A program made the position numbers and the translations under genes. Under the pieces are notes generated by a model. It did no database searches. It saw only the letters and a program-made list of their open reading frames with translations, and was not told where the DNA came from. DNA of 64,000 nt from a virus (Duplodnaviria; Caudoviricetes): the IMG/VR virus record IMGVR_UViG_3300028558_000029, positions 356 through 64,355 of that record. The stretch is one strand, 5' to 3'. This document shows, piece by piece, positions 22,625-36,741 of the stretch; within the stretch, counting starts at the first letter, position 1, and each line of letters opens with the position of its first letter.

Positions 22625-25600
22625 TGCCTGAAGTCAAGCCGCTGGACATTCCGTCGGTCACCGACGCCGAAAGCTACGGCAAGATCACCGAGGGCGGGCA
22701 GTACACGACTCCTGAAGGCAAGCTTCAGGTCAAGCCCTATGTGGTCAACAAGGAAGACCCGTCGAGCTACCGTGACATTCCTGACGGCCGGCTGTACCGT
22801 GACCCAGAAGGCGTGCTCAGGACCAAGCCGACCTACGAGCCGATCCATCCTGGCGCGCAGACGCTTTTCGACATGACCGACAATGTCGAGGAGCAGGAAA
22901 AAGTCCTGTCCAAGTTCTACGGAGCCGACTCGATCAAGCGCGATCCGGTCGGCGACCCGTACATCGTTACCCAGGATGGCAAGCGCCTGAAGCCAGGACG
23001 TGGCATGCCGGCCGTGACCGGGGCAATCGCCAGCCAGGCCTTGCCTATGGGATTGGCGGCTGGCGGAGACTTTCTTGGCGGTGCCGGCGGCGGACCGGTC
23101 GGTGCCGTGGCTGGTGGTGCCGCAGGTTCGATGCTGGGCCAAGAACTCAACAACACCATCCTGCGCGCCGCTGGCGTCTACGACGAGACGGGGGCGCAAG
23201 AGTTTAAACAACTGATGGGGGCTGCCCAAGGCGGTGGCATCGGCAGTGGTGTGGGGCGCGGAGCGGGGCTGATTGCCGGCGGCGCAGCCAAGGCGGCTGG
23301 TGTGGCTGGAAGTGTGATCCCGAGCTGGCTGCGCGGAGTCATGGGGGCCGACCCGGAAAGGCTGAAGATCGCTCTCGACCTGGATGCGCAGGGCGTCCGC
23401 TCATGGCCGAGCAAGTGGGCCACCCACACTCCGGTTCTGCCGTTCTACGAGGCCATGTCGCGCCGGTTCGGCTTCGATCCGGTCAGGACAACCGGCAAGG
23501 AATATTACGAGCGCACCGCAACCGATCTGCTTCATCAGCTTGGCGTCGAGCGTGGCAGTGCTGGCCGGTTGACTGAACAGGGTTCCATTCCAGGCGTGCG
23601 AGCGGCGAGCGCCGTCGATCCTGGTCAGGCCGGTCAGCTCCTTAGAGATCGTGTAAACAGAGATATGGCTGTCGCCGATGGCCGGCTTGAAGTGGCGCAG
23701 CGCGCTGCCGAGGCCGCCGCGCGTGAACGCGCCGCCGGCACATCGGCGGACGCTGATCGCACCTACCAGGATGCCCTGAAGGCGTTGAACGAGGAAGCCA
23801 ACTCGGCAACGATGCAGGCGCAGCATCTTCTGGACGGTGAGTTCAAGTCGATCATCGACGACAACAAGAAGGCCATCGACATCGCCAAGGCCGGCGAAAA
23901 CCCCGGCGATTTGGCTCGCAACATGGCCAACAAGATCGTGACGCTGCGTACCGCGATCACACGTCGCGCCCGCATGATGTATAGCGCGGCGGACAAGGCG
24001 GCCGGAGACGATATTCCTGATGTTTCCAAGCTGACCGGGGCGGTTGACGAGTTCCGTTCTCGTTTGCCGCAGGACATCAAGGAAAATCACCCAGGACTTG
24101 TGATCATGCTCGACAAGCTGGGCAAGCCCAAAGAAGCACAGGGCGGCGTTGGCGGGCAGGTTGCGGCCGACTTCGGCGCTGGTGGGGCCGGCGGTGAGCC
24201 GGCCAAGTCTGAGCCAATGACATTCGGTCAGCTACGCATGCTGCGCACAATGCTGCGCGATGTGCCAAACTGGGGCAATCTCGATCCGTCGTTTCGTGAC
24301 GGCATGTACAAGTTCTTCTCCGGCAAGGTCGACGAGGCCATCCACGACTCGGCCAACTCTCCTGGAATACAGCGCGCCGCCGGCCTTCTAGATCAGGCTG
24401 ACTCGTTCTACTCCAAGAACATGGCGCAGTTTCGCGATACCAAGATTCAGCAGATCACCGATACGATCAAGGCCGGAATGCCACCAGACCCTGGCGAGAT
24501 TGCCTCCATGGCGATGCAGGGCGGCTGGACGGAGCGCATGGGCGCTTTGCGTCGCATCACCGGGCCGCAGGTATGGAAGGCCGTCCAGTCAGCCGACACC
24601 AACCAGATGATTCAGGCGAGCCGTCGTGTCGACGGCACGATCAGTGGCAAGGACTTCGCCCGTCAGGTCGAGGACCGTGTCCAGAACGGCGTGCTGGACG
24701 GAGCCTACGACAAGGTGACCGCCGACCGACTGAAACTCCAGGCCAGTCGGGCTCTGTTCCATGGTGGCGATAGCGATATCGTGCTCGCCCCTGGCGACAC
24801 ACTTGAGACGTTGTCCAAGCGCCTATTCGACGCCAGAGAGCAGATCAAGCAAATGGCGCAGCAGAATCCGGAGCGAGTTCTGCGTGACGAGATGCAGCGA
24901 GCGCAGCGCGAATCCGCTATGCGCGCCAGAACGCTGACGGTCGAGCGCCGAAATGACCCACTGTCCTTTCTGGCCAGCCCATCCGTTGGCGCGGTCGATG
25001 CGGCGGAGAAGATTCTCGGAAGCCCCGACCTGATGAAGACGGTCATGCAGCGTTACGGTCAGGACAGTCCAGAGTGGATAACTATCCGTAACGTCGCTGT
25101 CCGTCGCATCCTTCAGAGAGAATTCGATAGTACGGGAAAGCTGCTCGGCGACGTGGCCGGAAAGATTCCGGAAGAGGCGCAGCGCATGTTGTTCCCAGGT
25201 CAGGCGTATGACGACTTCCATAAGCTGGCGAGCAATATGGAATATCTGATCTCCGACGTTCCTGACATGGGCTCGTCGCTGGCTACCGCCGCTGGCGTCA
25301 TGAATCCCGCTTCGTGGCTTAACCGCCTGTCCCATCCGATTGGCAAGGTCGCCAAGGCGGTTCCGACCGTGGCCGCCCGTGCCGCTGTCGAAGGTGTGGT
25401 GGCAGCTTTCGCTCGCTTCGGTACTGGTGGCCCACTGCTGCGCTACGTCGCCAAGGGCCTGGACGGCAGCCCGGCGCAACGCGAGGCGATTCGCGAGTTC
25501 GTGCGGAAAGCTATCGCTTCCGGTGGGGCCGGGTTCAGCGCGGCTGGGGCTGGCGGTGCCAACACACCTCCAGGCTTCGTTCCCGGTGATACGGCAACCT

Positions 25601-25632
25601 ACGGCGGCACCGGCACCCCGGTCCAGCCGTGA
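22621..25632 (+). CDS. ejection protein 3 (large internal virion protein)
   Basis: 1003 aa helical with glycine zipper; position. Confidence 0.65.
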   Translation: MMPEVKPLDIPSVTDAESYGKITEGGQYTTPEGKLQVKPYVVNKEDPSSYRDIPDGRLYRDPEGVLRTKPTYEPIHPGAQTLFDMTDNVEEQEKVLSKFYGADSIKRDPVGDPYIVTQDGKRLKPGRGMPAVTGAIASQALPMGLAAGGDFLGGAGGGPVGAVAGGAAGSMLGQELNNTILRAAGVYDETGAQEFKQLMGAAQGGGIGSGVGRGAGLIAGGAAKAAGVAGSVIPSWLRGVMGADPERLKIALDLDAQGVRSWPSKWATHTPVLPFYEAMSRRFGFDPVRTTGKEYYERTATDLLHQLGVERGSAGRLTEQGSIPGVRAASAVDPGQAGQLLRDRVNRDMAVADGRLEVAQRAAEAAARERAAGTSADADRTYQDALKALNEEANSATMQAQHLLDGEFKSIIDDNKKAIDIAKAGENPGDLARNMANKIVTLRTAITRRARMMYSAADKAAGDDIPDVSKLTGAVDEFRSRLPQDIKENHPGLVIMLDKLGKPKEAQGGVGGQVAADFGAGGAGGEPAKSEPMTFGQLRMLRTMLRDVPNWGNLDPSFRDGMYKFFSGKVDEAIHDSANSPGIQRAAGLLDQADSFYSKNMAQFRDTKIQQITDTIKAGMPPDPGEIASMAMQGGWTERMGALRRITGPQVWKAVQSADTNQMIQASRRVDGTISGKDFARQVEDRVQNGVLDGAYDKVTADRLKLQASRALFHGGDSDIVLAPGDTLETLSKRLFDAREQIKQMAQQNPERVLRDEMQRAQRESAMRARTLTVERRNDPLSFLASPSVGAVDAAEKILGSPDLMKTVMQRYGQDSPEWITIRNVAVRRILQREFDSTGKLLGDVAGKIPEEAQRMLFPGQAYDDFHKLASNMEYLISDVPDMGSSLATAAGVMNPASWLNRLSHPIGKVAKAVPTVAARAAVEGVVAAFARFGTGGPLLRYVAKGLDGSPAQREAIREFVRKAIASGGAGFSAAGAGGANTPPGFVPGDTATYGGTGTPVQP

Positions 25633-25862
25633 AAAAAGTCGTCCAAGTCCCCGAGTTCGAGCAGTCCCTCAAGAAGCTGGCCCAGGACATCGCCGATCAG
25701 GCGTTGACCGAGCAGGACTTCAAGGCCAAGGTAGACGCCTTCAAGGCCCTGGCCGCATTCCATATCGGCGTGACCAGGGTCAAGGCCAAGATTCCAGAAG
25801 AAGACGACCAGGAGACATTCGGTGGCATCATCAGGGACATCGCGACTACAGGCCGTGGGTGA
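25629..25862 (+). CDS. hypothetical protein
   Basis: GTGA-coupled ORF. Confidence 0.65.
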   Translation: MKKVVQVPEFEQSLKKLAQDIADQALTEQDFKAKVDAFKALAAFHIGVTRVKAKIPEEDDQETFGGIIRDIATTGRG

Positions 25863-26142
25863 GCGGGAAGCACCGACGCTGGAGGAAATGCACGCTGATA
25901 TGGTCGCCGCCCCGCCGACCGTAGGGCCGGGAATGGCGCTAGGCATGGTGCTTCTCGGCATCAAAACCCTGTCCCAACGTGCGTTGGTGATGATCGGAAG
26001 CCTCGCGAATCTGGCGCTATGCGCCTCGGTTTGGTGGTTGTTCGTCCAAATGCCAGATAATCCCTCATGGCCCAAGATCGCAGCCAATGCCGGATATGGC
26101 ATCTTCGTGCTTACTGCAATTTTCCTGACCAGACGAAGGTAG
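25855..26142 (+). CDS. small membrane protein (2-3 TM)
   Basis: Hydrophobic segments, basic C-terminus; start uncertain. Confidence 0.65.
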   Translation: MGEREAPTLEEMHADMVAAPPTVGPGMALGMVLLGIKTLSQRALVMIGSLANLALCASVWWLFVQMPDNPSWPKIAANAGYGIFVLTAIFLTRRR

Positions 26143-26154
26143 CGAGGGTGCGAC

Positions 26155-27744
26155 ATGCGGCTAGGCTGGCTTTCCATATTCTTTGCCGGCCTGATCGCAT
26201 CGCTTCCGGCGGGTGCCGCCGAGTACATCCAGCAAGGCGGTAATGTAACCCAGGGGCATGTCGGCTCCTGGACGGCTCCCGGCATTCTTCAGGACGGTGG
26301 GCCGGCGACCGCTGGCAAGGTGACCGAACTCGGCATCACCCGGAACGGCGGCCTGCCGTTCTGCATCTATACCGGGCCAACCTCCCCAACCGTTCGCCTG
26401 TGCTTCACCGTTAGCAGCACGGACGGCGCGACCATCACCATGGTCAACAGCGGGTCGCCGCTGCCGTTCAACGTAAATTACAATGGGGTAATTTCCCCAT
26501 TCTCCATCCCTGTTCCGGTATCGCTCGCCAACGGCGGAACTGGAGTGGCACTGACCGCCAATAACGGCGGCATCGTCTATTCCAATGCCTCGACCCTGGC
26601 GATCCTGAGCGGAACCAGCACGGCCGGACTGCCGCTGATTTCTGGCTCGAATGCTGTGCCAAGCTGGGGCTCCAGGTCGGGCAACACCACGGTCTTCGGC
26701 ACGGCAAGCGGCACGTTGACGGACGGTCATTGCGTGACCATCAACGGCGGCAACTTCATCGATGCTGGCGGCCCCTGCACAACTGGCGGTGGCGGCGGAA
26801 CCGTGTCGGCCGGCACGGCCGGTCAGATGACTTACTATGCCGGATCGGGGACCGTGGTGGCTGGAAATGCCAACGCGACGATCAGCGGCGGCGCGCTGAC
26901 GCTGGGCCAGTCCAGCTCGGTGGCCGGTTCCCTGATCCTCAACGGGTCTGGCAGCGGTCACGGGACGATCGTAGCCCAGGCGGCGGCGGGCACGCCAACC
27001 CTGACACTTCCGACCGGCAGCGGTACTTTCGCCAACTCGGCCTCCGCGCCCCTTTCTCTATCGGCCACAACCGGCGCGCTGACCATATCGTCGGCCACTT
27101 CCGGAGCGCTCGGTGTCGTCCAGGGCGACGGATCGACCCTGACGATCTCGGCTGGCGTCATTTCTTGCACCACGGCGACCACCAGCCAGATCGGCTGCGT
27201 GAAGCCTGACGGCACATCGGTCACCATCTCCGGAGGCATCATATCGTCGGTCAACACTAGCGGTCCGGTCCTGCTGGCGACGCTGACCGCCAGCACCTCG
27301 GCATCGTTGACCGACACAACTCACATTACCAGCTCTTACAAGTCGTATGAGTTCAGGGTCATCAATCTACTGCCGGTGAACGCTAGCGCCACCCTGCAAA
27401 TGCAGCTTTCGACCAATGCCGGCTCGTCCTATGACAGCACTCTTGGAAACTACTGGATCAACAACGCCAACAGCATGGCGTGTCCGAGCGCCGAACTCGA
27501 TACGTCTAACTCCCTTCCGCTTGGCGGCATGAATTCGATCATGAAGCTGTATACGCCATCAACCAACGGCACCTACAAGATGCTCTACACGGCGGCTGTG
27601 GCGGCTTTTACCAGTTCGGATGTTCTGAGGGATGAGGTTGGCTGCATGTATGTCGGCAGCACGTCGCCAGTGAACGCGATCAAGTTCATCGAGGACTCCG
27701 GCAGCATTAGCTCTGGCGTGATCGAGATATGGGGATACCCATGA
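26155..27744 (+). CDS. tail-fibre-like protein with Sec signal peptide
   Basis: MRLGWLSIFFAGLIASLPAGA-AE; V..GGTG fibre repeats; Ser/Thr/Gly-rich. Confidence 0.7.
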   Translation: MRLGWLSIFFAGLIASLPAGAAEYIQQGGNVTQGHVGSWTAPGILQDGGPATAGKVTELGITRNGGLPFCIYTGPTSPTVRLCFTVSSTDGATITMVNSGSPLPFNVNYNGVISPFSIPVPVSLANGGTGVALTANNGGIVYSNASTLAILSGTSTAGLPLISGSNAVPSWGSRSGNTTVFGTASGTLTDGHCVTINGGNFIDAGGPCTTGGGGGTVSAGTAGQMTYYAGSGTVVAGNANATISGGALTLGQSSSVAGSLILNGSGSGHGTIVAQAAAGTPTLTLPTGSGTFANSASAPLSLSATTGALTISSATSGALGVVQGDGSTLTISAGVISCTTATTSQIGCVKPDGTSVTISGGIISSVNTSGPVLLATLTASTSASLTDTTHITSSYKSYEFRVINLLPVNASATLQMQLSTNAGSSYDSTLGNYWINNANSMACPSAELDTSNSLPLGGMNSIMKLYTPSTNGTYKMLYTAAVAAFTSSDVLRDEVGCMYVGSTSPVNAIKFIEDSGSISSGVIEIWGYP

Positions 27745-29105
27745 TCCGGTCCGGCGCATTCCTGGCCGCTCTGCTGTGGGCCGTTCCGGCCCTGTCGGCT
27801 GACTATATCCAGCAGTCTGGCAGCGTCACACAGGGCCACGTCGCGTCGTGGGTGGGTTCCGGGCTTCAGCAGGACGCCGGACCGGCGACTGGCGGACGCA
27901 TCACCGAACTTGGCATCACAAAGAATGGCGGGTTGCCGCTCTGTATAAACACCGCACTGGTCGGCCTGCCGCTGGCCGAGGCGTGCCAGGGCGTCAGCTC
28001 GACGACCGGGGCATTCTTCTCGCTTCAGTCGTACAACGGTCAGGCGGCGATGCCGCTATCGTTCCTGATCAACGGCTTCACGCCGCTGGTTCTGAACGCT
28101 GACGGCACCATCACGACGAACATCACCGGGTCGACGCAGTGTCTACAGGTCAGCACGGTGGGGCTGGTCAGCGGGAGTGGCGGAACCTGCGGTGGGGGTG
28201 GCGGGACGCCGGGCGGCTCTTCTGGGCAAGTTCAGTACAACAATAGCGGCTCATTTGGCGGCTTCACCGTCAGCGGAGACGGTACGCTTGACACCGGGAC
28301 CGGGGCGCTGACCGTCAGCAGTGCGTTTGGTGGAGTGCCATTTGCTACTTCAGCTTTTGTTGACACTACGAACGCTAGCAACATTTCGTCAGGAACACTG
28401 ATTCCATCGGCAGTGACCGGCACAGGCACGCTAACGGTCGGCGCAACCGGGGCTGGATTTACGATTGATTTCGGGGCCAGCACCGTATCTGGACAGCTTG
28501 GGCTTTCTGGCGGCGGCACGGGAGCTAGCATCTCGGCAACTTCTGGCGGAATCCCATACTTCTCTTCGACCTCCGCTATGGGATCGAGCGGCCTTCTGAC
28601 CCATTACGGACTGATATACGGCGGCGGTGCTGGAGCGGCTCCGGTATCGATGGTGGCCTGCTCAAGCGGAGCCCCGGTGCTTGGCGGAAGCACAGCCCCA
28701 GTGTGTGGTTCAGATGTCAATCTGGCCTACACCGATGTGGCACAAGCGTTTACCAAGTCGCAGCGGGGGACGCCGGTCAACATCGCCATCTCTACCGCGA
28801 CGTTCACCCCATCGTTCAACAATGCCCAAAATTTTGAAATCGACCTGACCTCCGCGTGTCCGTGTGCTCTGGCGAATCCAAGCACATCGCTGGTGGCCGG
28901 TCAGTCGGGAATGTTTGAGATTCACCAGGATGGCTCCGGCAGTCGCACCATCGTGACGTGGGGCAGCGACTATCAGTCGGTGGGCGGCACGAGCACGATC
29001 GTTCTCAGCACGGCCGCTAGCGCCATCGACTATCTCCCATACTATGTCAACAACGCAGCGACCGCCATTGTGTTTGGCGGCCTGATCAGATCGCCGAGCC
29101 ACTGA
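27741..29105 (+). CDS. tail-fibre-like protein with Sec signal peptide, paralog of 26155
   Basis: MIRSGAFLAALLWAVPALS-AD; shared N-domain; PGGSSGQVQYN and QDGSGSRT..W fibre motifs. Confidence 0.7.
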   Translation: MIRSGAFLAALLWAVPALSADYIQQSGSVTQGHVASWVGSGLQQDAGPATGGRITELGITKNGGLPLCINTALVGLPLAEACQGVSSTTGAFFSLQSYNGQAAMPLSFLINGFTPLVLNADGTITTNITGSTQCLQVSTVGLVSGSGGTCGGGGGTPGGSSGQVQYNNSGSFGGFTVSGDGTLDTGTGALTVSSAFGGVPFATSAFVDTTNASNISSGTLIPSAVTGTGTLTVGATGAGFTIDFGASTVSGQLGLSGGGTGASISATSGGIPYFSSTSAMGSSGLLTHYGLIYGGGAGAAPVSMVACSSGAPVLGGSTAPVCGSDVNLAYTDVAQAFTKSQRGTPVNIAISTATFTPSFNNAQNFEIDLTSACPCALANPSTSLVAGQSGMFEIHQDGSGSRTIVTWGSDYQSVGGTSTIVLSTAASAIDYLPYYVNNAATAIVFGGLIRSPSH

Positions 29106-30034
29106 TGCGCCAAGCCCTAATCACTGCTGTTTTGCTATTCTTTTATACGGGGATCGGATTTCCAGCCGAAGCCCAGATCGTGGGGACTTTCGTTCAGGCG
29201 TCTCCATTTACAGGGCTGGGTGACGCGGTCACCGGAGCCACCGCCTATTGGTCCTGCTCAAGGGCCTACTCTTCGGTGACAACGGCGTCTAAGGCGTGCA
29301 ACATATGCGATGCGGCCAATACTCATTGTGTTGATGTTTACAGTGACGCCGGCACCGGGATTGTGCCGGTTCCAAAACCAGACGGCAGCACGCCATGCGA
29401 CAACTCCGGCAACATCTGTACGGTTCAGACGGTATACAATCAGGTAAGCCCTGGAAATTACAACTTCGGGCAATCCACCGCCGCCAGCCGCCCAACTTTG
29501 GCAATATCTTCCTTGGGAAGCGCCGTCCAATACATAAAGTTTGTTGGGACTAGTTCTCAACATATGGACGGTAACACGGGTCCTAACCTAAGTAACAACC
29601 CGACTACTTATGTGTTTTACTCTCAAAGGAACGGTTCATTCACAACCGAGGGGACTATACTAAGTAACCAAACTGGTCTTACCACCCAGCAAACTGATTA
29701 TAAAAATGCCACCAACTCATTGTCTGTAGTGAATGTGATCAGCAACACGGTGACTGCTTCTGATAGCGCATGGCATTCTATTCAGACCATTGCTAATGGT
29801 GCATCGCCGGCATCTTTCGTTTGGGTGGATAGCACGTTGACAACTGCCAACCTTAGCGCCACCGGGACCACAACAAAACTATGTATGGGTTCTCTTGGAA
29901 ACGGCGGCACCACATGCACGGCCACTGGATTTTATGTGACCGCCATTATCGGCGAGATCGCTATCTATGACGGTGTCGCCTTCAACGCCACTCAGCACGA
30001 CAATGTCAACGCGAATCAGGCAGCGTTTTACTAA
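29105..30034 (+). CDS. signal-peptide protein with AbfB-catalytic/LamG-like domain
   Basis: A-E-A cleavage site; AYWS.SRAY...T.Y.Q....Q.T.A.RP motifs. Confidence 0.6.
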   Translation: MRQALITAVLLFFYTGIGFPAEAQIVGTFVQASPFTGLGDAVTGATAYWSCSRAYSSVTTASKACNICDAANTHCVDVYSDAGTGIVPVPKPDGSTPCDNSGNICTVQTVYNQVSPGNYNFGQSTAASRPTLAISSLGSAVQYIKFVGTSSQHMDGNTGPNLSNNPTTYVFYSQRNGSFTTEGTILSNQTGLTTQQTDYKNATNSLSVVNVISNTVTASDSAWHSIQTIANGASPASFVWVDSTLTTANLSATGTTTKLCMGSLGNGGTTCTATGFYVTAIIGEIAIYDGVAFNATQHDNVNANQAAFY

Positions 30035-30076
30035 ACCGTGAAGGTAGGCTACCATCTGCCCCAGGAGGGCGTTTAA

Positions 30077-31447
30077 ATGATCAAGCGTGTTCTAGGGGCG
30101 TTGGCATTGGTGACGGCGGTAGCGTTCTGGCATAGCGCCAGCGCCGCCGAGGCCGATCTGTACTGCCTGACCAGCAGCACGCCGCCGTTTCAGCCGTGCT
30201 CCGGCACCAACCCCCTCCAGGTCACCGCTTCCGTTAGCGCGACCACGGCCTACACAGCAGCCGCCGCGCTGCCTTCGCTTTCTCCTGGAACGCAGGCCGG
30301 CTATGAGAGCCTGTCCGGCGGACAGTATGTTCAGCCGATCTTTGGCACGACTATCGTCGACCTGACCCATGGCTTGCCGGTCAATATTGTGGCCGGGGCC
30401 GGGGCCGGTGGTACGTCGTCGAACTATGGAGCCGCCTTCCCGACTGCCGGTACCGCCATTGGCTTGACCGATGGTACGAACATGCGAGCATTGACCGGCA
30501 TCAATTATACCGGAACCTCGTATTCTGCTGCGACTTCGGTGGTTCAGGCGCTTCCTGCTGGGACAAACGTCATCGGTCACGTCATTACCGATACCGGGTC
30601 GACGACGGCAGTTACTGGCACCGTGACTGTATCCGGCACCGTCACTGCCAACGCTGGCACGGGAACATTCAGTGTGGCCGGAACCGGTAGCGCCGGAACC
30701 GCCAACGCTGGCGTCGTTACCATACAGGGTATTGCGTCGATGACGCCGGTTCAGGTGTCGCAGGCCACTGCTGCCAACCTGAATGCCACTGTCGTTGGCG
30801 CGGGAACGGCCGGCAGCCCCAGCGGTGGCGTTGTATCTATTCAGGGCGTGGCCTCCGGAACCGTTGTCCCGGTGACAGCGACCAACCTTTCGACCAATCT
30901 CGCACAGGTCAATGGCGCGACGGTCAATGTTGGAACTGGTGCGGCCTCCACCGGTACCCAGCGAGTTACCACGTCGACTGATAGCACCATCGGGACCGTC
31001 ACATCAGTCACCGCAATCGCCAATGCCTTGCCATCTGGCAGCAACGTCATTGGTCATGTGGTAACCGACAGCGGCTCCCTGACCACGCAGACCCCGGCGA
31101 CCAGCGGTGGCCTTTCCGTAGCCCGGACGATCCTGGCGAACAACACCACTTCGGTGGCGGTCAAGGCCAGTGCCGGTCAAGTCTACCATATCGATGCGAC
31201 TAACAATTCGACCAGCGTTAACGCCTATTTCAAGATTTACAACATAGCCCAGGGCTCCAATACCTGCGGATCGAATACCCCGATCATGACGATCATGGTC
31301 CCGTTTGGCAGCGGCTTCGTGCTGGACGACGCCAATGGATTCGCCTTCTCCACAGCAATCTCGGTCTGCGTCACAACCGGGCTGGCGGATGCGGACACGG
31401 GCGCTCCTGCCGCCACGTCCGGCACCTGGAACGTAGGCTATAAGTGA
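30077..31447 (+). CDS. signal-peptide Thr/Gly/Ala-rich structural protein
   Basis: MIKRVLGALALVTAVAFWHSASA; repeated ALP.G.NVIGHV.TD.GS. Confidence 0.7.
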   Translation: MIKRVLGALALVTAVAFWHSASAAEADLYCLTSSTPPFQPCSGTNPLQVTASVSATTAYTAAAALPSLSPGTQAGYESLSGGQYVQPIFGTTIVDLTHGLPVNIVAGAGAGGTSSNYGAAFPTAGTAIGLTDGTNMRALTGINYTGTSYSAATSVVQALPAGTNVIGHVITDTGSTTAVTGTVTVSGTVTANAGTGTFSVAGTGSAGTANAGVVTIQGIASMTPVQVSQATAANLNATVVGAGTAGSPSGGVVSIQGVASGTVVPVTATNLSTNLAQVNGATVNVGTGAASTGTQRVTTSTDSTIGTVTSVTAIANALPSGSNVIGHVVTDSGSLTTQTPATSGGLSVARTILANNTTSVAVKASAGQVYHIDATNNSTSVNAYFKIYNIAQGSNTCGSNTPIMTIMVPFGSGFVLDDANGFAFSTAISVCVTTGLADADTGAPAATSGTWNVGYK

Positions 31448-33159
31448 TGCGGGCGCTCGTCGCGGCTGTTCTGTTTGGGCTGACCCTGACGGCAGGGTTG
31501 CATCAGTCGGCCTATGCGGTTGGCGAGATGATGATGGGGGTTGGGAAGGCGGCGGCTGTTGGTGGCTGCTCGTACACCGGCCCTGTCGACGTGGTGGCTG
31601 GCCCGACGATCCTCTACTCGACCAGGGCCGCGAGCACCGCGACGTGCGGGAACAAGCTGATGAACGTCTGTAACGTCAGCGATGTGGCCTGTGGCGACCT
31701 TTCCAGCAGTGCATCGACCGGCAAGATGGTTATTTCGACCATCGGCGGATCGAACTGCTCCATCGTCACCTGCACGATCAAGACGTGGTATGACCTCTCC
31801 GGGAACGCCAACGACACAACGCAGAGCACCATTGCGAGCCGGGCGACCTTCACGGTCAGTTGCCAGAACTCGCAGCCTTGCGCGACTTGCGCCGGTTCCT
31901 GCATCTATGCGTCGGGCAGCGCGATCTCGACGACCCAGCCGTTCACAATGATCTCCTACGCCGAACGGACGGGGGCGACGACCTCGCTCAACTCCATCGC
32001 CCGTTCGGTCACGACCACTATCATCCTTGAGTTCACGACCTCGGCCAACCAGGCGGGGATCACGGCCGGGACGCTGGCGACGGCGACGGCCTCGGACAAC
32101 GCCTTCCACAGCATCAACGCGGTGGCGAATGGGGCCTCCTCGCTGCTCTCGATCGATGGTGCGACGGCGACGGTATCGGCCAACACCAACGCGATGTCGG
32201 CCAAGGTGTTCTGCGTGGGGACCGGGAACAACGCCTGCACCAGCGCCGCTTCCGGCCTGAACGGGAACCTGACCGAGGTTGGAATCTGGGGCTCGACCGG
32301 CTTCACGACCAGCAACTTGACCTCCATGAACACCAATCAGGCGACGTTCTGGGGGACGACCTTCGCCGGTGCGGGCGATGTTGTCTCGGGTGCCACGGCC
32401 TTCTGGTCAGCGAGCCGGGCCTATGCCGGGGCGACTCGGGGGCTCAAGGTCGCGAACGTCTGCAATGTTGCTGATGCGGCCTGCGCGGATATCAGCAGCG
32501 ATATCTCAAGCGGAGTGGTAGCCGCCCCCACCATCGGGGGCAGCGCATGCTCGGTCGTCACCTGTACGATCAAGGTTATGTACGACCAAACCCTGGGCGG
32601 TTTCGATGCCACCCAGGCGACCATCGCAACGCGGGCCACGCTAACCGTGGCTAGCCTAGGCAGTGCGGCTATCTACGCCTCCGGGAGCGGATCACAGTTT
32701 TACCCCTTGACTGCGGCTACCACCGTCGTGGAGCCATGGACGTTCATATCCTTTAGTAAAAGGAGCGGGAATTTTACAGGCTTTGGAGGTGTTCTATCGG
32801 ACATAAACTCAGGGACGCACCTATACTATAGGTCGATTGTCGATAGCGTTGGCTTCGATGTTAATGGAACGGCGATAACCATTTCCGGAGCAGTTCCAGA
32901 TGCGTCATATCATTCTCTTATCGGCGTATCTGCTTCAGTTGGAAGTAATAGCCTTTTAGTTGTAGATGGCTCGGCCACCACTGGAACCACAGGGACATCA
33001 TCTCTAAGTGGTGGATTTTGTTTGTTTTCGACTTCTAATGGGAGTGTTTGCGGAACGATTGCATCGACTGCAAATATAGGGGAGCTTGCTGTATACCCCA
33101 TTGGGTTCAACTCCACGCAATACGGCAATATGAACACCAACGAGGCGGCATTCTACTGA
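31444..33159 (+). CDS. signal-peptide protein with two tandem AbfB/LamG-like Cys-rich domains
   Basis: Internal duplication NVCNV.D.AC.D.SS...TIGGS.CS.VTCTIK..YD; A-Y-A site. Confidence 0.65.
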   Translation: MMRALVAAVLFGLTLTAGLHQSAYAVGEMMMGVGKAAAVGGCSYTGPVDVVAGPTILYSTRAASTATCGNKLMNVCNVSDVACGDLSSSASTGKMVISTIGGSNCSIVTCTIKTWYDLSGNANDTTQSTIASRATFTVSCQNSQPCATCAGSCIYASGSAISTTQPFTMISYAERTGATTSLNSIARSVTTTIILEFTTSANQAGITAGTLATATASDNAFHSINAVANGASSLLSIDGATATVSANTNAMSAKVFCVGTGNNACTSAASGLNGNLTEVGIWGSTGFTTSNLTSMNTNQATFWGTTFAGAGDVVSGATAFWSASRAYAGATRGLKVANVCNVADAACADISSDISSGVVAAPTIGGSACSVVTCTIKVMYDQTLGGFDATQATIATRATLTVASLGSAAIYASGSGSQFYPLTAATTVVEPWTFISFSKRSGNFTGFGGVLSDINSGTHLYYRSIVDSVGFDVNGTAITISGAVPDASYHSLIGVSASVGSNSLLVVDGSATTGTTGTSSLSGGFCLFSTSNGSVCGTIASTANIGELAVYPIGFNSTQYGNMNTNEAAFY

Positions 33160-33659
33160 TGCGCAAGATCATCCTCTTCTTCCTGCTCGTGGCCTCCCCG
33201 GCCTTCGCCCAGGTCACGACCAACAGCTATCTGCCGCAATCCGATCTCAGCACGGCCGCTGGACGGAGTCAGCTTGAGGCTCAGGCGATGGGGGCGACTC
33301 CGGACGGGAAGGGCAACTATCCGGGGTGGTGGGAATACCGGGCCTATCCATGTACCAAGGGGCCGACCGTGTTCATCACCATAGAGGCCGCGCCGCGCCA
33401 GCTCGCCACCGTGGGCTCCGACGACTTCACCGCCAATCCGCGCGCTCCGGTGATCGCGGCGACGGGGCGCAGCGTGCTCGCGCCTGCGGTCAACGGCCGG
33501 CTGAACATGGTCGCGGAGATGGCCCCGGTGATCGATCAGCAAACGGGGAAGGCCCAGCGCGCAGCGCCGACTGGCCTGAGTGCCGACGAGATCATTGCGC
33601 TGGTGCCCTACGAAACGATGCAGTCAAACGGGTGTTTCCCCGACCCAGGCCAGAACTGA
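33159..33659 (+). CDS. signal-peptide hypothetical protein
   Basis: MRKIILFFLLVASPAFA-Q. Confidence 0.7.
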   Translation: MRKIILFFLLVASPAFAQVTTNSYLPQSDLSTAAGRSQLEAQAMGATPDGKGNYPGWWEYRAYPCTKGPTVFITIEAAPRQLATVGSDDFTANPRAPVIAATGRSVLAPAVNGRLNMVAEMAPVIDQQTGKAQRAAPTGLSADEIIALVPYETMQSNGCFPDPGQN

Positions 33660-33723
33660 CATTGACAAATCAGTGTGACCATCAGCAACCTGCGACAGGC
33701 TCGTAACCCGTCAAGGAACGATC

Positions 33724-34023
33724 ATGATGACACGAATTGCCGCGATTGCGTTTGGTGGAGTAGCGATGGCTCTCTCCCTGTTTGCTCCGGCCATGGCTGC
33801 CGACGCACCACCGGCCCCGCCTGAAAAGCCAGCGCTGGCGGAGCCAGCCAAGCCAGCCAATTACACCATCACCCTGACCATGGACCAGCTCGTCGCCCTG
33901 GACTCGATCCTGAACGAGTCCAATTCGCCGTACCGTCTGGTTGCCGCCCTGCGGCAGTCCATCATCACCCAGTATCAGGCACAGCTCTCAAAGGCCGACC
34001 CGGCCAAGGCAGAAGGAAAATAA
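33724..34023 (+). CDS. signal-peptide small protein
   Basis: MMTRIAAIAFGGVAMALSLFAPAMA-AD. Confidence 0.7.
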   Translation: MMTRIAAIAFGGVAMALSLFAPAMAADAPPAPPEKPALAEPAKPANYTITLTMDQLVALDSILNESNSPYRLVAALRQSIITQYQAQLSKADPAKAEGK

Positions 34024-34026
34024 GCA

Positions 34027-34284
34027 ATGGCCGGCGACTCAAGCGATTCTGGAGCCTATGAGCGCCGGTCTGACGATGGCTGGATGGGAAAGCGGTTCGA
34101 CCGCATGCTCAACATCATCCAGGTGTCGGCGATCATCATTGGTGGGGTCTACGCCCTCGCCCAGATGAGGGAGCAGGTTTCCGGGCTGCGATCCGACCTG
34201 ACCGGGTTCGAGGATCGCATGGACAAAACGGTCACGGATATGGGCAGGCGTATCGACTCCATTCTTCTTTCTGGCAAGAAATGA
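34027..34284 (+). CDS. single-TM coiled-coil lysis-module protein (holin/antiholin candidate)
   Basis: One TM plus coiled coil, coupled to endolysin. Confidence 0.55.
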   Translation: MAGDSSDSGAYERRSDDGWMGKRFDRMLNIIQVSAIIIGGVYALAQMREQVSGLRSDLTGFEDRMDKTVTDMGRRIDSILLSGKK

Positions 34285-34727
34285 CCATCCGTATAAACGA
34301 TGCCGGCATGGCGATTCTGAAGAAGCATGAGAAGTGCTCTTTGGTCTCCTATTGGGACATCGATGGCTGGTCGATCGGCTGGGGTTGTCATAACCACCCC
34401 CTGGTCGATGCGCTTACGCGGTGGAGCCAAGAACAGTGCGACCAGCAGCTGATCGAGGATATCGAAGCCGTCGAGTCTGAACTGGACCATCTGCTGACCA
34501 TTATCGTCACGTCCAATGAGTGGTCCGCCCTGGTCGACTTTCTGTACAATGAGGGATATAGCCACCTGAGTGGTTCGACCCTGCTCAAGCTGGTCAATGC
34601 CGGAGACTTCAAAGGGGCGGCCGACGAGTTTCCGAAGTGGCGCGTGGCGGGCGGCAAGCCAAACGCCGATCTGGAGGCGAGGCGCGCTGACGAACGAGCA
34701 CTATTTTTGACTCCAGATCAAGCATAA
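34281..34727 (+). CDS. endolysin, GH24 lysozyme
   Basis: HEKC....YWD....SIGWG, ALVDFLYNEG, STLLK.VNAG, L..RR..ER.LF. Confidence 0.92.
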   Translation: MTIRINDAGMAILKKHEKCSLVSYWDIDGWSIGWGCHNHPLVDALTRWSQEQCDQQLIEDIEAVESELDHLLTIIVTSNEWSALVDFLYNEGYSHLSGSTLLKLVNAGDFKGAADEFPKWRVAGGKPNADLEARRADERALFLTPDQA

Positions 34728-34733
34728 ACAGCA

Positions 34734-34747
34734 TTTCATATATGCAC
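34734..34747. promoter_or_regulatory. operator copy (TTTCATATATGCAC)
   Basis: Matches GTGCA-N4-TGCAC family; intergenic. Confidence 0.5.
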
Positions 34748-34769
34748 TGATTGTGGCAGAATAACGGTT

Positions 34770-34839
34770 GCGCCGGGGGCACTGCGTTCCTCCCCCGCTT
34801 CGCAGCCGGCCCCTCCCCCCATAGGCCAGCCCTCGGCGC
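34770..34839 (+). ncRNA. predicted three-way-junction RNA with two CCUCCCC loops
   Basis: 10-bp closing stem and two internal hairpins seen by eye. Confidence 0.4.
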
Positions 34840-34852
34840 TCGGAGTTTTCTA

Positions 34853-35104
34853 GTGACCGACATTGCGCCGAAGAGCACAGCGACATCGATGGGGACCGCC
34901 ACTGGCGGTGCTCTGATGATCTACGTTTTCAAGTGCTGGACGGCCCATCAGATTATCGTTCCAGACGAAACCGTAGCGATCATCCTGGCCGGAACGATCG
35001 CGCCGATTGTCGAGATGCTCGGCCGCATCGTGGTTGCACTGATCGAGAAGTTCACCGGGGCCGATATCAACCAGAATGGCGTTGTGGGAAACGGCGCACA
35101 TTGA
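34853..35104 (+). CDS. putative holin (2 TM)
   Basis: GGAG SD + GTG; two hydrophobic segments after endolysin. Confidence 0.55.
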   Translation: MTDIAPKSTATSMGTATGGALMIYVFKCWTAHQIIVPDETVAIILAGTIAPIVEMLGRIVVALIEKFTGADINQNGVVGNGAH

Positions 35105-35115
35105 GGAGTCTGATC

Positions 35116-35457
35116 ATGAATTTGCTTAGCTGGGTACGCTCGCTTGGTGCGGGCTGGTTCGTCGAGTGGCGCGATGCGGTCGAGAACAAGGCCAAGGCCG
35201 CTTTTCAGGCCATCCTGAACAGCATCGAAGAGGATGCGCAGCCGGTGGCAATCGCTGGCTTCGACGCGGCGAAGACCGCCGTACTGGCCAAGCTGGCGAG
35301 CGGTGGCTCGGTCCAGGACGCCGAAGGCGCGGCTATCGATGCGCTGAAGGCGACTCTGGCGGCGAATGGCAAGACCCTGGCCGAGGATGCGTTCACCCAC
35401 ATCGTGGCTGCCGTCATGGCGAGCGCCACGGCCAGCCAGACCACGGCGACGGCGTGA
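35116..35457 (+). CDS. hypothetical Ala-rich protein
   Basis: GAGGAG SD. Confidence 0.7.
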   Translation: MNLLSWVRSLGAGWFVEWRDAVENKAKAAFQAILNSIEEDAQPVAIAGFDAAKTAVLAKLASGGSVQDAEGAAIDALKATLAANGKTLAEDAFTHIVAAVMASATASQTTATA

Positions 35458-35702
35458 TGGCGAACGTCTTCGACGGCAAGCCAGACGAGAGGCAGTCTGA
35501 CAAGTCAATTCAGGTATCGCGTTTCCGTCCGATGTATCGCGCCCTAAGCGATGAGGAGAAGGCGCTGCACGACGCCATCAAAGCCAAGGCTGTCGAACTG
35601 GAAACGCTTTTCGATACGGTGAAGGCCGGGCGCTATCGCTCTCTCGCCTATACCGAGCTGGAGCTAGCGGTCATGTGGATCATCAAGGAGCTGACTTCGT
35701 GA
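35457..35702 (+). CDS. Acb2/Tad1-like nucleotide-signal sponge protein
   Basis: YRALSDEEKAL...IK....L.......GRYRSLA.T.LE.A.MW. Confidence 0.7.
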   Translation: MANVFDGKPDERQSDKSIQVSRFRPMYRALSDEEKALHDAIKAKAVELETLFDTVKAGRYRSLAYTELELAVMWIIKELTS

Positions 35703-35977
35703 GCCTCCTCTCAGAAATCGGCTTGGAGGGTGGCGAGCTGATTCTGAAGGCGCTCGCCACCATTCCCAATCCGTTCATTGCCGAAGCGCGCATCGCCGAG
35801 GCTGTGCTTCCTCACGTCCAGGAGGCCATCGATCTCGGCAAGAAGCTGTGGAACGATGTGGCCGGAGCTGTCAAGAACGACATTCCTCTGACGGCCGAAC
35901 AGGTCGATACGGCACAGAAGGCTCAGGACGCCTACTACATCGCTATGGCGATCCAGGCCACTCCGCCATCAGACTGA
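35699..35977 (+). CDS. hypothetical protein
   Basis: AAGGAG SD, GTGA coupling. Confidence 0.65.
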   Translation: MSLLSEIGLEGGELILKALATIPNPFIAEARIAEAVLPHVQEAIDLGKKLWNDVAGAVKNDIPLTAEQVDTAQKAQDAYYIAMAIQATPPSD

Positions 35978-35981
35978 TCGT

Positions 35982-36374
35982 TTAAACTAACTTAGATTTC
36001 TTCATCGGAACATTCCACCACCCAAGCTGCGCGGCCACATCGTCAACCGATCTGGCTATCGCAACGTGGTGGTGGAGTTCCATGAGCTGAGCGGTCATCA
36101 GAAGCTGCGATTCCGACAGCCTTCCCTTGGCCGACTTCAGTTCGATCCACCCGACGATAGGTTGCTTGGTGTCGGGATCGCTCCACATCAGGCACAGGTC
36201 CGGCATCCCAGCCCTCACCCCCATGCCTTTGAGTCGCTTGGCGGTTATCAGTGAGCGCTGCTCGCCGTTGGGGATATGGAACCACAGGACCGATTTGTGG
36301 AGCACCGCCGACAGGTAGCGCGCGACGGCGGAGTGGATGGCGGCCTCGCTCGGCCCCTTGCGTATCTGCACCAT
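35982..36374 (-). CDS. VRR-NUC domain nuclease
   Basis: SEAAIH...FHIPNG...GVRAGMPDL...WIELKS.KGRLSESQ. Confidence 0.9.
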   Translation of the reverse strand: MVQIRKGPSEAAIHSAVARYLSAVLHKSVLWFHIPNGEQRSLITAKRLKGMGVRAGMPDLCLMWSDPDTKQPIVGWIELKSAKGRLSESQLLMTAQLMELHHHVAIARSVDDVAAQLGWWNVPMKKSKLV

Positions 36375-36386
36375 GCAGTGTATATA
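36358..36386 (+). promoter_or_regulatory. sigma70-like promoter TTGCGT-17-TATATA with overlapping operator; predicts leaderless HTH mRNA
   Basis: -10 ends 6 nt before ATG 36393; operator TTGCGTATCTGCAC at 36358-36371. Confidence 0.55.
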
Positions 36387-36392
36387 GCGCAC

Positions 36393-36623: not shown

Positions 36624-36648
36624 CAGGTTCGGTTGATCGGCGTATAAG
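36620..36648 (+). promoter_or_regulatory. sigma70 promoter of tRNA array TTGACA-17-TATAAG
   Basis: Near-consensus boxes 17 nt upstream of first tRNA. Confidence 0.8.
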
Positions 36649-36665
36649 CCGCCCTCACGAATTGA

Positions 36666-36741
36666 CGCGGATTGGAGCAGTGGCCAGCTCGCCAGCCTCA
36701 TAAGCTGGAGGTCGGTAGTTCGAATCTATCATCCGCCTCCA
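36666..36741 (+). tRNA. tRNA-Met(CAT), initiator-like
   Basis: C1 mismatch, fMet-like D arm, CCAGC-CTCATAA-GCTGG, CCA. Confidence 0.9.

Follow-up and report, generated by a model that had tools for sequence, protein, structure and literature searches.

Tailed-phage virions assemble in the cytoplasm. In the window analysed here, the whole 64,000-nucleotide stretch of phage DNA, the fibre slot is occupied by seven consecutive ORFs (P1 to P7, 26155-34023), bounded by an ejection-type gene (1003 aa) and the endolysin gene, and each of them begins with a predicted classic Sec/signal-peptidase-I leader. This arrangement raises the question of whether the host-recognition proteins of a phage might mature outside the cytoplasm, where the remaining virion parts are built, and of what such exported proteins would then do. 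The features on which the argument rests are the following.

17410-18183, + strand: leaderless Gly/Thr/Val-rich ORF of 257 aa after the nozzle-type gene, its ATG lying at the stop of ORF 15335-17410
22621-25632, + strand: ejection-type (internal virion) protein of 1003 aa, upstream bound of the cluster, named from position, size and glycine-rich segments
25822-26142, + strand: small ORF just ahead of P1, a putative membrane protein (two hydrophobic segments)
26155-27744, + strand: P1, 529 aa; leader of 22 residues (26155-26220, + strand), then the N-terminal module common to P2, a shaft rich in Gly, Ser and Thr, and a C-terminal domain
27741-29105, + strand: P2, 454 aa (458 aa if the ATG at 27729 is used); leader (27741-27800, + strand), then the shared N-terminal module, PGGSSGQVQYNN as a central motif and, at residues ~328-454, a C-terminal tip domain
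29105-30034, + strand: P3, 309 aa; leader (29105-29173, + strand), then one concanavalin-A-like domain of lectin/glycosidase type
30077-31447, + strand: P4, 456 aa; leader (30077-30145, + strand), then an N-terminal loop with two cysteines, a repeat-rich shaft and a jelly-roll tip (residues ~345-456)
31444-33159, + strand: P5, 571 aa; leader (31444-31518, + strand), then two copies of the P3-type lectin-like domain
33159-33659, + strand: P6, 166 aa; leader (33159-33209, + strand), then a predicted secreted protein of 149 residues
33724-34023, + strand: P7, 99 aa; leader (33724-33798, + strand), then a small, predicted secreted protein, Pro/Ala-rich and then helical, beside the lysis genes
34027-34284, + strand: 85-aa protein with one membrane segment (hydrophobic window at residues ~27-44), candidate holin or spanin from its position
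34281-34727, + strand: endolysin, downstream bound of the cluster (PF00959, E 1.2e-28; phrog_7 endolysin, E 6e-37)

The surroundings of the cluster largely agree with the first-pass annotation. The gene at 22621-25632 that it counted among ejection genes is present upstream, and shares 37% identity over 992 aa with the 1027-aa ORF preceding the leader-bearing ORFs of a sister phage, L012; the ejection role is suggested by position, size and composition, the gene having no family match in Pfam or PHROG. The small membrane ORF expected ahead of the cluster was also found, with a counterpart kept in L012 (37% identity to a 99-aa ORF at the same position) and no family match in Pfam, PHROG, PADLOC or NCBIfam. 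At the other end, the 85-aa ORF had no family match in searches that included Pfam and PHROG, and the endolysin shows no signal, SAR segment or N-terminal hydrophobic stretch, which implies a hole-forming holin. The phage also encodes a UDP-galactopyranose mutase.

The leaders were detected with our own heuristic for n-, h- and c-regions, a crude instrument in which the hydrophobic runs used are of at most 18 residues, and it flags all seven cluster ORFs at the starts given above. In a crude gene call over the whole window, six cluster ORFs were flagged together with one of the 85 others, an antisense ORF; the 33159 ORF dropped out because it was displaced by a longer TTG start at 33048 and the antisense ORF. 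Wrong starts, non-coding frames, or chance in a GC-rich genome with Ala/Leu/Arg-rich ORFs could in principle produce such a row, and the heuristic does have a background. In this window (60% GC), 24 of the 359 ORFs of 60 aa or longer in the six frames are flagged, those of the cluster included; so are 7 of 268 segments taken from the interior of homologues and, when starts are assigned permissively, 70 of 468 distant ORFs. Among shuffled and reversed versions of the same 268 hydrophobic-rich proteins, 50 and 46 respectively are still flagged. The six-frame ORFs and internal segments give a false-positive rate of ~3-7%, so that seven leaders in a row are not due to chance (the probability of seven consecutive hits at a rate of ~5% is near 1e-9).

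The starts themselves are constrained. Six of the seven ORFs have no upstream in-frame start, an in-frame stop lying 1 to 29 codons before the start used, and the junctions overlap, with ATGA at P1/P2, GTGA at P4/P5 and a single shared base at P2/P3 and P5/P6. The next in-frame start is at least 41 codons downstream in P1 and P2, and in P3 to P7 nearer ones lie inside the leader or just past its end; no start skips a leader without also losing conserved mature sequence. Public homologues, called independently, begin at the same leaders. The genes are also intact in natural populations, with third-position variation dominating: there are no insertions or deletions across the cluster in four rhizosphere runs, P1 occurs there as two alleles, and 28 of the 30 differences listed in its N-terminal module fall at third codon positions. 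The leaders are real coding sequence, seven in succession as the first-pass annotation had read them, and for practical purposes the upstream stops, homologue starts, third-position variation and chance estimate refute an artefact of start codons or chance. None of the seven has a cysteine at +1 or a twin arginine, as read from the sequences, so these proteins are neither lipoproteins nor Tat substrates; the first six mature residues carry a net charge of 0 to -2 in all seven.

Leaders of this kind recur in related phages. L012 (37% identity) has the same gene order and leaders on all five of its fibre-slot ORFs; the P2 family (209 homologues) carries them in 100 of the 120 listed, and the P4 family (5198 representatives at E <= 1e-3) in 90 of the best 150. 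Across 188 leader-bearing homologues, the median leader length is 21 residues, most leaders end in a c-region containing Pro or Gly, alanine occupies position -1 in 156 and position -3 in 155 (partly circular, since the rule used favours Ala), glutamine stands at +1 in 111, and the net charge over the first six mature residues is zero or negative in 165. What these hundreds of relatives keep is a physicochemical pattern consistent with an export leader, while the sequences drift. P1 and P2 share ~70% identity over the first ~45 mature residues, their leaders being nearly unrelated; between P2 and a variant at 99%, 5 of 24 leader residues differ and none of 434 mature ones, and the corresponding P1 variant shows the reverse, with no differences in 22 leader residues and 19 in 507 mature ones. 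Leader state also clusters by genome: ORFs neighbouring P4 homologues bear leaders in 21 of 43 cases if the homologue has one and in 18 of 160 if it has none (odds ratio 7.5, p 3e-7, duplicates removed).

A second signature lies in the cysteines. The mature chains of P1 to P7 contain 8, 8, 8, 4, 18, 2 and 0 cysteines, all even numbers, at 1.98 per 100 aa for the cluster versus 0.67 in 14 other large ORFs. No leader-bearing homologue is without cysteine (0 of 188), the count is even in 181 of 188, and cysteine content has medians of 1.62 and 1.20 per 100 aa. The leaderless relatives, in contrast, have four to five times fewer (median ~0.3 per 100 aa); 22 of 80 are cysteine-free, and the count is even in 36 of the other 58, a near-random parity. 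The difference holds for parity (Fisher p 2e-10) and for content (Mann-Whitney p 1e-8 and 8e-17), tying the presence of a leader to cysteines that are apparently paired. With the conserved but drifting leaders and the genome clustering, this link gives strong comparative support to export and oxidative, disulfide-forming folding of the cluster proteins in the periplasm, as first proposed from this locus alone.

The hydrophobic N-termini might instead be structural, as trimerising or tail-inserting helices, or simply be ignored, the fibres assembling in the cytoplasm in the textbook manner; according to a preprint legend, the P22 tailspike lacks a signal peptide since it has no need of export, which fits such a route. 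We consider this very improbable. A docking helix would be conserved in sequence, and the opposite is seen, leaders being unrelated between paralogues and homologues apart from their n/h/c pattern and small-x-small site. The short hydrophobic runs (at most 18 residues) and the Pro/Gly c-regions do not favour it either, the AlphaFold model of P4 shows the leader (residues 2-18) as a detached helix followed by disorder, and the even, never absent cysteines are hard to explain without an oxidising compartment.

By their folds and domains, and by their place in the fibre slot, the cluster proteins belong to the fibre, spike and lectin class. The fibre motifs noted at first inspection were recovered, PGGSSGQVQYNN and QDGSGSRT in P2 and GGTG motifs in both P1 and P2. 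P1 matches phrog_14820 and phrog_27494, and P5 phrog_10356, all labelled 'virion structural protein'. The P2 tip, modelled at pLDDT 84-95, is widely shared (172 BFVD matches at E <= 1e-3, many named tail fiber), and the P4 tip is modelled at pLDDT 92-97; the shafts are modelled at low confidence. P3, which has no Pfam match by hmmscan, falls in the ESM Atlas among viral clusters with PF09206 (ArabFuran-catal) or Laminin_G_3 (TM 0.72). Of six non-self homologues of P5, three have a leader, two an N-terminal membrane anchor in its place and one neither. The cluster does not, however, consist of fibres throughout, as had been claimed, since P6 and P7 are small secreted proteins without fibre features: P6 has no family or relative in Pfam, PHROG, PADLOC, NCBIfam or the homologous loci, and P7 no match in the same four libraries and no relatives found. 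P7 may be a lysis component rather than a fibre.

The best explanation takes the cluster for the receptor-binding module of a ~64-kb podovirus-like rhizosphere phage, and our best guess, to which we give a probability of about 0.5, is that its exported fibres join the virions at lysis. Late in infection, the unfolded chains would cross the inner membrane as Sec precursors and signal peptidase I would cut them after the small-x-small site, leaving P1 and P2 with a free N-terminus a few residues ahead of the conserved module. In the oxidising periplasm the chains would fold, pair all their cysteines and presumably trimerise, the L012 spike, a leader-bearing protein of 1320 aa with a Peptidase_S74 domain (E 3e-14), supplying its own intramolecular chaperone. 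Capsid and tail assembly would stay cytoplasmic as usual. Once the holin opens the inner membrane, the signal-less endolysin would exit and the two compartments mix, so that P1, P2 and probably P4 could dock on fibreless tails through their processed N-terminal modules, the most conjectural step of all; P3 and P5, with their lectin-like domains, and the short proteins P6 and P7 may accompany them or serve as periplasmic helpers. Docking is supported by the position of the cluster in the fibre slot, by the tailspike hallmark domains of leader-bearing relatives (tail Collar and K1-lyase_C), and by the conserved module that directly follows the predicted cleavage site in P1, P2 and the L012 spike. 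All the ~18 relatives of this module that were seen (10 of 10 in one listing, four loci, a further two, and two by eye) have a leader, and in them the conserved motif begins at most a few residues from the predicted cut.

As a somewhat less probable alternative, the same proteins may be exported to act on the envelope of the infected cell, where the N-terminal module would keep them in the periplasm or on the surface. By binding or cutting nascent surface glycans they would mask or destroy receptors, excluding superinfection and sparing progeny from sticking to debris; or else they would tether neighbouring host cells. Adsorption would then fall to another, leaderless virion protein. The lectin/furanosidase-like P3 and P5, together with the mutase, suggest an interest in host surface glycans, and the module accompanies differing tail gene sets, as in contigs L001, L003 and L004, where the tail genes are of quite another kind and three phrog_394 tail genes lie beside it. 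In one T7-like contig (L029), leader-bearing spikes occur beside a canonical leaderless T7-type fibre and are thus not necessarily the main fibres of the virion. In the present phage, the first-pass annotation saw no clear signal-less long fibre; there is indeed none that is long, but the 257-aa ORF at 17410-18183, without a match in PHROG, Pfam or the phage collection, is a short leaderless candidate, possibly a short fibre, a tail tip or a docking partner. On the other hand, the fibre slot holds only leader-bearing ORFs in this phage, L012 and L002, with no other long receptor-binding candidate found, and at ~8 kb the cluster takes up 12% of the genome, a heavy cost for an accessory function in an apparently lytic phage. 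The tips behave as receptor-binding tips do, being shuffled across hundreds of phage contigs. The cluster proteins show neither a beta-barrel nor a lipobox, nor any other feature that would target them to the outer membrane, and no exclusion family was matched in PADLOC or NCBIfam.

Our search of the published literature found no description of a leader-bearing phage fibre cluster, and the two cultured relatives found are both leaderless. A leaderless ORF in Pelagibacter phage HTVC010P shows a weak relationship to the C-terminus of P1. Fold matches are middling overall (Z <= 8.2): the best solved match of the P2 tip is the C-terminus of an Acinetobacter phage tailspike (Z 8.2, rmsd 2.7 A over 91 aa), and the P4 tip (Z <= 7.6) resembles a phage cement protein, Ena pili, XepA and the tip of the Bdellovibrio fibre Bd2133 (Z 6.7). 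This last likeness favours the envelope, for which the Bdellovibrio MAT fibres offer a precedent: they have the same architecture as the cluster proteins, but are located on the cell surface as adhesins (PMC10769870) and are not virion parts.

Between the gene of a 1003-aa ejection-type protein (22621-25632), which bounds the cluster upstream, and the lysis genes, a location shared with the sister phage contig L012 and the viral contigs L002 and L029, the phage carries seven head-to-tail ORFs on the + strand (26155 to 34023). Each starts with a leader, that is, a predicted N-terminal export signal of the Sec/signal-peptidase-I type.

Leader-bearing ORFs of the fibre slot and the neighbouring endolysin gene
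26155-27744, +, P1
27741-29105, +, P2
29105-30034, +, P3
30077-31447, +, P4
31444-33159, +, P5
33159-33659, +, P6
33724-34023, +, P7
34281-34727, lysozyme-type endolysin (PF00959)

In all seven leaders, one or two Lys/Arg within the first 3-5 residues precede an uncharged hydrophobic run of 13-18 residues, as delimited by a heuristic and not long enough to cross a membrane, and a short c-region ending small-x-small; the predicted cleavage-site types of the set are GAA, LSA, AEA, ASA, AYA, AFA and AMA, and the net charge of mature residues +1 to +6 is 0 to -2 in every case. P1-P7 thus share with Sec/SPI signal peptides the n-, h- and c-region features and an early mature region without positive charge. 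Cysteine is absent from every leader and from +1 (no lipobox) and the n-regions hold no RR pair, so that these proteins are neither lipoproteins nor Tat substrates. The n/h/c-region heuristic flags 7/7 cluster ORFs at the starts used; when genes were called crudely over the whole window, it flagged six of them and 1/85 other ORFs, the seventh having been missed because a longer upstream TTG start displaced the proper one. Its background is 7/268 for internal segments of homologues and 24/359 for six-frame ORFs of the window, a set that contains those of the cluster; it is untrained and still flags 50/268 shuffled N-termini and 46/268 reversed proteins. The start used is the most upstream in frame in six of the seven ORFs, an in-frame stop lying 1 to 29 codons before it, and four junctions in the cluster overlap (ATGA, GTGA and two of a single base). 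In P1 and P2, at least 41 codons separate the start used from the next one downstream in frame, whose use would remove conserved sequence; the other five have nearer in-frame starts inside or just after the leader. With the starts well fixed, the claim of the first-pass annotation that seven consecutive ORFs each bear a Sec-type leader holds.

Folding in the oxidising periplasm tends to go with paired cysteines. The mature products of P1-P7 contain 8, 8, 8, 4, 18, 2 and 0 cysteines, respectively, all even numbers, and the same pattern distinguishes leader-bearing from leaderless homologues once self-like entries are dropped.

Cysteines in homologues with and without a leader
Leader-bearing, n=188: Cys-free 0; even count 181/188; median Cys per 100 aa 1.62 (P2 family) and 1.20 (P4 family)
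Leaderless, n=80: Cys-free 22; even count 36/58 of those with Cys; median about 0.3 Cys per 100 aa

The contrast between the two groups is pronounced both in even counts (Fisher p 2e-10) and in cysteine content (Mann-Whitney p 1e-8 and 8e-17), and a cysteine pattern tied to the leader would be difficult to account for if the chain, despite its leader, stayed in the cytoplasm. Judged from sequence, export and oxidative folding of the cluster proteins are therefore very probable. This part of the earlier proposal, export with disulfide folding in the periplasm, is well supported; of its two outcomes, joining to virions is rated more probable than a place at the cell surface, as discussed below.

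The leaders are kept in related phages, as the sister contig L012 and the homologue families indicate. The ejection-type protein encoded by L012 (64.8 kb) is 37% identical to that of the phage over 992 residues; its gene is followed by two small ORFs in the same order as in the phage, then by five ORFs, 5/5 with leaders, and then by the lysis genes. Its first fibre-slot ORF (1320 aa) shares with P1 and P2 the N-module, the conserved domain that follows the leader, and contains a Peptidase_S74 intramolecular chaperone domain (E 3e-14) together with a weak, sub-threshold match to End_tail_spike, the endosialidase catalytic domain (E 8e-4, 20 bits against a cut-off of 25). S74 is a hallmark of tailspikes and fibres. 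Directly after this spike gene lies a 95-aa leader-bearing ORF (L012 11129-11416, +), whose mature part consists of short Leu-Val-Asn-Thr-Gly-type repeats.

Leaders in the homologue families
P2 family: 209 homologues at E <= 1e-3; leaders in 100/120 (best 120 examined)
P4 family: 5198 representatives at E <= 1e-3; leaders in 90/150 (best 150 examined)
P5 family, which also covers the P3 domain: 6 non-self homologues; 3 with leaders, 2 with membrane-anchored N-terminal extensions, 1 with neither

The leaders of homologues (n=188) have a median length of 21 residues, with Ala at -1 in 156/188, a count that is partly circular as the rule favours Ala. Among the best 120 of the P2 family, the 20 leaderless proteins are mostly distant and have only the central Gly-rich motif in common, and some leaderless P2 relatives carry T7-fibre or DUF2793 domains; among the best 150 of the P4 family, the 60 leaderless proteins often have another conserved N-terminus in common. 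Many leader-bearing P4 relatives (for example P0142, P0170, P0191, P0208 and P0215) share short Cys-containing modules right behind the predicted cut, one with a Cys-Gly-Thr-Pro-Pro core and another being a two-Cys loop like that of P4, and at this place the leaderless relatives have an unrelated conserved N-terminus. The relatives with an N-module that were examined, about 18 (10/10 in the homologue set, four loci, two further proteins and two found by eye), all have a leader, and the conserved motif starts at most a few residues from the predicted cut. Homology to P2 is strongest over the C-terminal ~125 residues, the tip. Its occurrence in proteins 256-795 aa long is what shuffling of a receptor-binding tip would produce.

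Leader-bearing ORFs also cluster in genomes. In 78 viral loci fetched with an alignment of the P4 tip, 70 of them with a full ORF over the match, 27/67 same-strand neighbours of leader-bearing ORFs have a leader, against 20/163 beside leaderless ones and a background of 70/468 under the same permissive start rule; after nine duplicate loci were dropped and three doubtful leaders reclassified by eye, the figures are 21/43 and 18/160 (odds ratio 7.5, p 3e-7). Three leader ORFs stand in a row in the contig L028, and L002, a low-GC phage of a different structural-gene lineage, has leader ORFs of 1092 and 284 aa between its DNA-ejection genes and its endolysin. The evidence for drift of the leaders is mixed. 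P1 and P2 have nearly unrelated leaders and about 70% identity over the first ~45 mature residues, and P2 differs from its 99% variant at 5/24 leader and 0/434 mature positions; P1 shows the reverse against its own 99% variant (0/22 leader, 19/507 mature). A tblastn search with P1, P2, P3 and P4 found no leader-bearing relative among cultured phages, and with P2 and P3 it found no cultured phage at all.

The first-pass annotation had described the whole cluster as a tail-fibre locus, and this identity is borne out for part of it. The P2 tip, modelled at pLDDT 84-95, finds its best, middling PDB match in the C-terminus of an Acinetobacter phage tailspike (Z 8.2, rmsd 2.7 A over 91 aa), followed by a Pseudomonas phage capsid spike (Z 7.7), a Klebsiella phage baseplate protein (Z 7.2) and CBA120 TSP4 (Z 6.5), and the P2 model has 172 matches at E <= 1e-3 in BFVD, a viral structure library, many of them labelled tail fiber. 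Besides the S74 domain of L012, some leader-bearing relatives carry tail Collar and K1-lyase_C domains. The P4 tip is a jelly roll (pLDDT 92-97) with generic structural matches (Z <= 7.6), among them a phage cement protein, the disulfide-linked Ena pili, XepA and the Bdellovibrio Bd2133 fibre tip; as its scores to many jelly rolls are middling, no family is assigned. For P2 and P4 alike, shaft and N-module were modelled with low confidence. In the ESM Atlas, P3 and both repeats of P5 fall with viral clusters of the concanavalin-A-like lectin/arabinofuranosidase-B type (GH54-type; PF09206, Laminin_G_3; TM 0.72), with PF09206 on 48-80% of the members of the clusters beside P3; hmmscan of P3 and P5 against Pfam gave nothing at E <= 0.01. 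P1 and P5 match 'virion structural protein' PHROGs, and none of the seven proteins has a match in Pfam, NCBIfam or PADLOC. The label fits P6 and P7 less well: they are small, leader-bearing, predicted to be secreted, and found no relatives in the searches made. Overall, the cluster would encode phage receptor-binding proteins whose precursors are exported and disulfide-bonded.

The genes upstream hold tail-type proteins of their own. Two adjacent paralogous tail-type genes (13693-14415 and 14415-15335, +) are found there, and an inserted Gly-rich domain of ~100 aa in 14415-15335 recurs in 12497-13618 and 15335-17410. The upstream part of a crudely called ORF, 14148-15335, and the frame 17505-18524 are probably not real coding frames. 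The product of 15335-17410 aligns weakly (E 7e-5 and 4e-4) with an Hc3/nozzle-type protein of L002 over the same inserted domain, and in view of this alignment it is less likely to be a hidden leaderless fibre than a nozzle with an inserted domain. Searches of PDB sequences gave no match for P1, P2 (as a profile), P4, P5 or the ORFs starting at 15335, 14148 and 5593, and no relative of the 1003-aa ejection-type protein came up when loci were searched with its single sequence.

As for the destination of the proteins after their probable export, we put the chance that they dock as fibres on virions at about even. Docking is favoured by the fibre-slot position, by analogy with the familiar gene order of T7, by the conserved module directly behind the predicted cleavage site, and by the lack of any other long fibre candidate in the phage, L012 or L002, which agrees with the earlier remark that no long signal-less fibre is present. 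As the endolysin carries no export signal itself, a hole-forming holin, here a putative one, must join cytoplasm and periplasm before release. A non-virion role, in which the exported proteins act at the cell envelope, is a possible though less probable alternative. It draws on the MAT fibres of Bdellovibrio, which have a like layout and are reported to be located at the cell surface (PMC10769870), on the leaderless 257-aa ORF 17410-18183 of the phage itself, which is rich in Gly, Thr and Val and has no family match found, and on L029, where a canonical leaderless T7-type fibre (phrog_4492, E 3e-42) occurs together with leader-bearing spike-like ORFs ahead of the lysis genes. L029 is a T7-like contig from an Alphaproteobacteria MAG with two such spike-like ORFs (L029 4140-5852 and 7337-11811, +), and it offers a natural test case for what leader-bearing proteins contribute beside a canonical fibre.

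A far-reaching model, with a probability of roughly 0.45, is that a large group of tailed phages without cultured members, represented here by contigs from the rhizosphere and other environments, would use two compartments to build its virions. Capsid and tail would be made in the cytoplasm, and the whole receptor-binding apparatus would leave it by Sec, lose its leaders to signal peptidase, and acquire its disulfide bonds and trimerise in the periplasm, joining the particles only once the holin breaches the inner membrane. Such phages would also be the natural origin of the fibre adhesins that predatory bacteria export.

The phage is a free genome on a 64,355-bp contig, of which the window is nearly all.

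Other landmarks of the genome
11456-12484, HK97-type major head gene (phrog_9953)
36666-40330, +, array of 27 tRNA genes
39381-39932, HNH endonuclease ORF inside the tRNA array

Deposited phages include no close relative: a search of a phage collection found no DNA-level match to the genome or the cluster, and the head protein shares 34-36% identity with two uncultured phage records. An exact direct repeat of 111 bp lies near both contig ends (window 66-176 and 63890-64000, genome 421-531 and 64245-64355) and extends to ~150 bp if a few mismatches are allowed; being set off from the very start of the contig, it differs from a simple terminal redundancy. Within 19000-37000, promoter and terminator scans stayed at chance level (6 found for 5.4 expected and 17 for 13.0, respectively). 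A PurZ-like adenylosuccinate synthetase homologue (60497-61630, +; phrog_1211 E 1e-53, PF00709 E 2e-40) suggests that 2-aminoadenine may replace adenine in the phage DNA (a 'Z genome'); its neighbour, 59667-60584, matches phrog_2971, a family without known function. ORFs resembling class-II glutamine amidotransferase and amidoligase (53969-56415, -) and cysteine dioxygenase (2955-3428, +; phrog_4786 E 9e-34) may be DNA-modification or metabolic genes. The ORF 4039-5556 (+) encodes a UDP-galactopyranose mutase, by a match to PF03275 (E 4e-68) that rules it out as a packaging gene, and its product also has an NAD-binding Rossmann domain; as the match begins at about residue 125, the true start may be further downstream. 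This galactofuranose-precursor enzyme shares a genome with the lectin domains of P3 and P5, which look furanosidase-like and are predicted to be exported, a combination that suggests host surface glycans as the target.

The hosts of the leader-bearing group are likely Alphaproteobacteria. Among species-representative bacterial genomes, the P2 tip occurs at only two loci, both in Alphaproteobacteria MAGs, one of Stellaceae; names on homologues include Stellaceae and Roseiarcus, and the leaderless cultured relatives are phages of Caulobacter and Pelagibacter. At least half of the words sampled from the cluster occur in each of twelve rhizosphere-metagenome runs, one possibly the source. Across contigs of four rhizosphere runs, from one year, one habitat and possibly one campaign, the cluster shows no insertions or deletions and 27,9xx-34,023 is essentially invariant; P1 has two alleles, with 28 of the 30 N-module differences listed at third codon positions and 97 further differences beyond these.

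The assembly of tailed phages is taught as purely cytoplasmic, with signal-less fibres as the rule. It is hence surprising that the full receptor-binding module of a phage bears export signals, together with hundreds of sampled relatives in families with thousands of representatives, and that the cysteines of the leader-bearing proteins follow the pattern seen in proteins outside the cytoplasm. Searches of openly accessible full texts yielded no description of Sec leaders on tailed-phage fibres; the legend of one preprint gives the usual expectation, namely that the P22 tailspike lacks a signal peptide since no export is needed. If the proteins are on virions, they would represent a new assembly route for tailed phages and a new host dependence (Sec, LepB, Dsb), and thus a new kind of phage resistance, and recombinant production of such fibres would require periplasmic expression. 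If they are not, phages would be releasing fibre-like adhesins and lectins, in entire sets, into the envelope of the infected cell, which would also be new. Either outcome offers a possible origin for the Bdellovibrio MAT adhesins, and annotation pipelines should keep 'tail fibre with signal peptide' calls rather than drop them as errors.

Among known systems, the closest in layout are the MAT fibres of Bdellovibrio bacteriovorus, which are reported to consist of a signal peptide, a conserved beta-rich N-terminal domain of ~110-130 aa, a shaft and an exchangeable tip, and comprise surface-located S74 and non-S74 subtypes with variable tips (PMC10769870). P1, P2 and the L012 spike match this layout, with a leader, the N-module and a variable tip, a likeness of architecture. 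The S74 type of MAT fibres has its counterpart on the phage side in L012, and the P4 tip resembles that of the MAT fibre Bd2133 (Z 6.7). The two differ in their setting: MAT genes belong to a bacterial chromosome and their products to the predator's own surface, whereas here the genes occupy the fibre slot of a free phage genome.

Canonical podovirus fibre genes come after those of ejection-type proteins and before the lysis genes, and T7 gp17, the K1F endosialidase and the P22 and CBA120 tailspikes have no signal peptide and join the tails in the cytoplasm. The cluster is like these fibres and tailspikes in gene position, in its paralogues with a common N-terminal module and variable tips, in the tailspike-like C-terminal domain of P2 and in the S74, Collar and K1-lyase_C domains of relatives, but P1-P7 differ in their leaders and their high, paired cysteine content. 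Pfam shows no T7 gp17-type N-terminal domain (PF03906) in any of the seven, and the N-module of P2 and the T7-type fibre of L029 are not significantly similar.

Phage proteins that take the Sec route include SAR endolysins, spanins, T4 RI, exclusion lipoproteins and the coat proteins of filamentous phages, whose structural proteins are exported ahead of assembly. Phages thus do exploit the host Sec system late in infection; to our knowledge, these proteins serve in lysis, exclusion or filamentous virions, and none is the fibre of a tailed virion. Unlike those of SAR-type proteins, the cluster leaders look cleavable, and they are borne by a whole receptor-binding module. Finally, gp004c of Caulobacter phage S2B has a P4-type C-terminal domain (37% identity over P4 residues 318-445) and a 217-aa ORF of Pelagibacter phage HTVC010P has a P1-type one (29% identity over P1 residues 391-527); both proteins are leaderless and have few cysteines, unlike P4 and P1, and on these alignments they would represent those domains in their usual cytoplasmic form.
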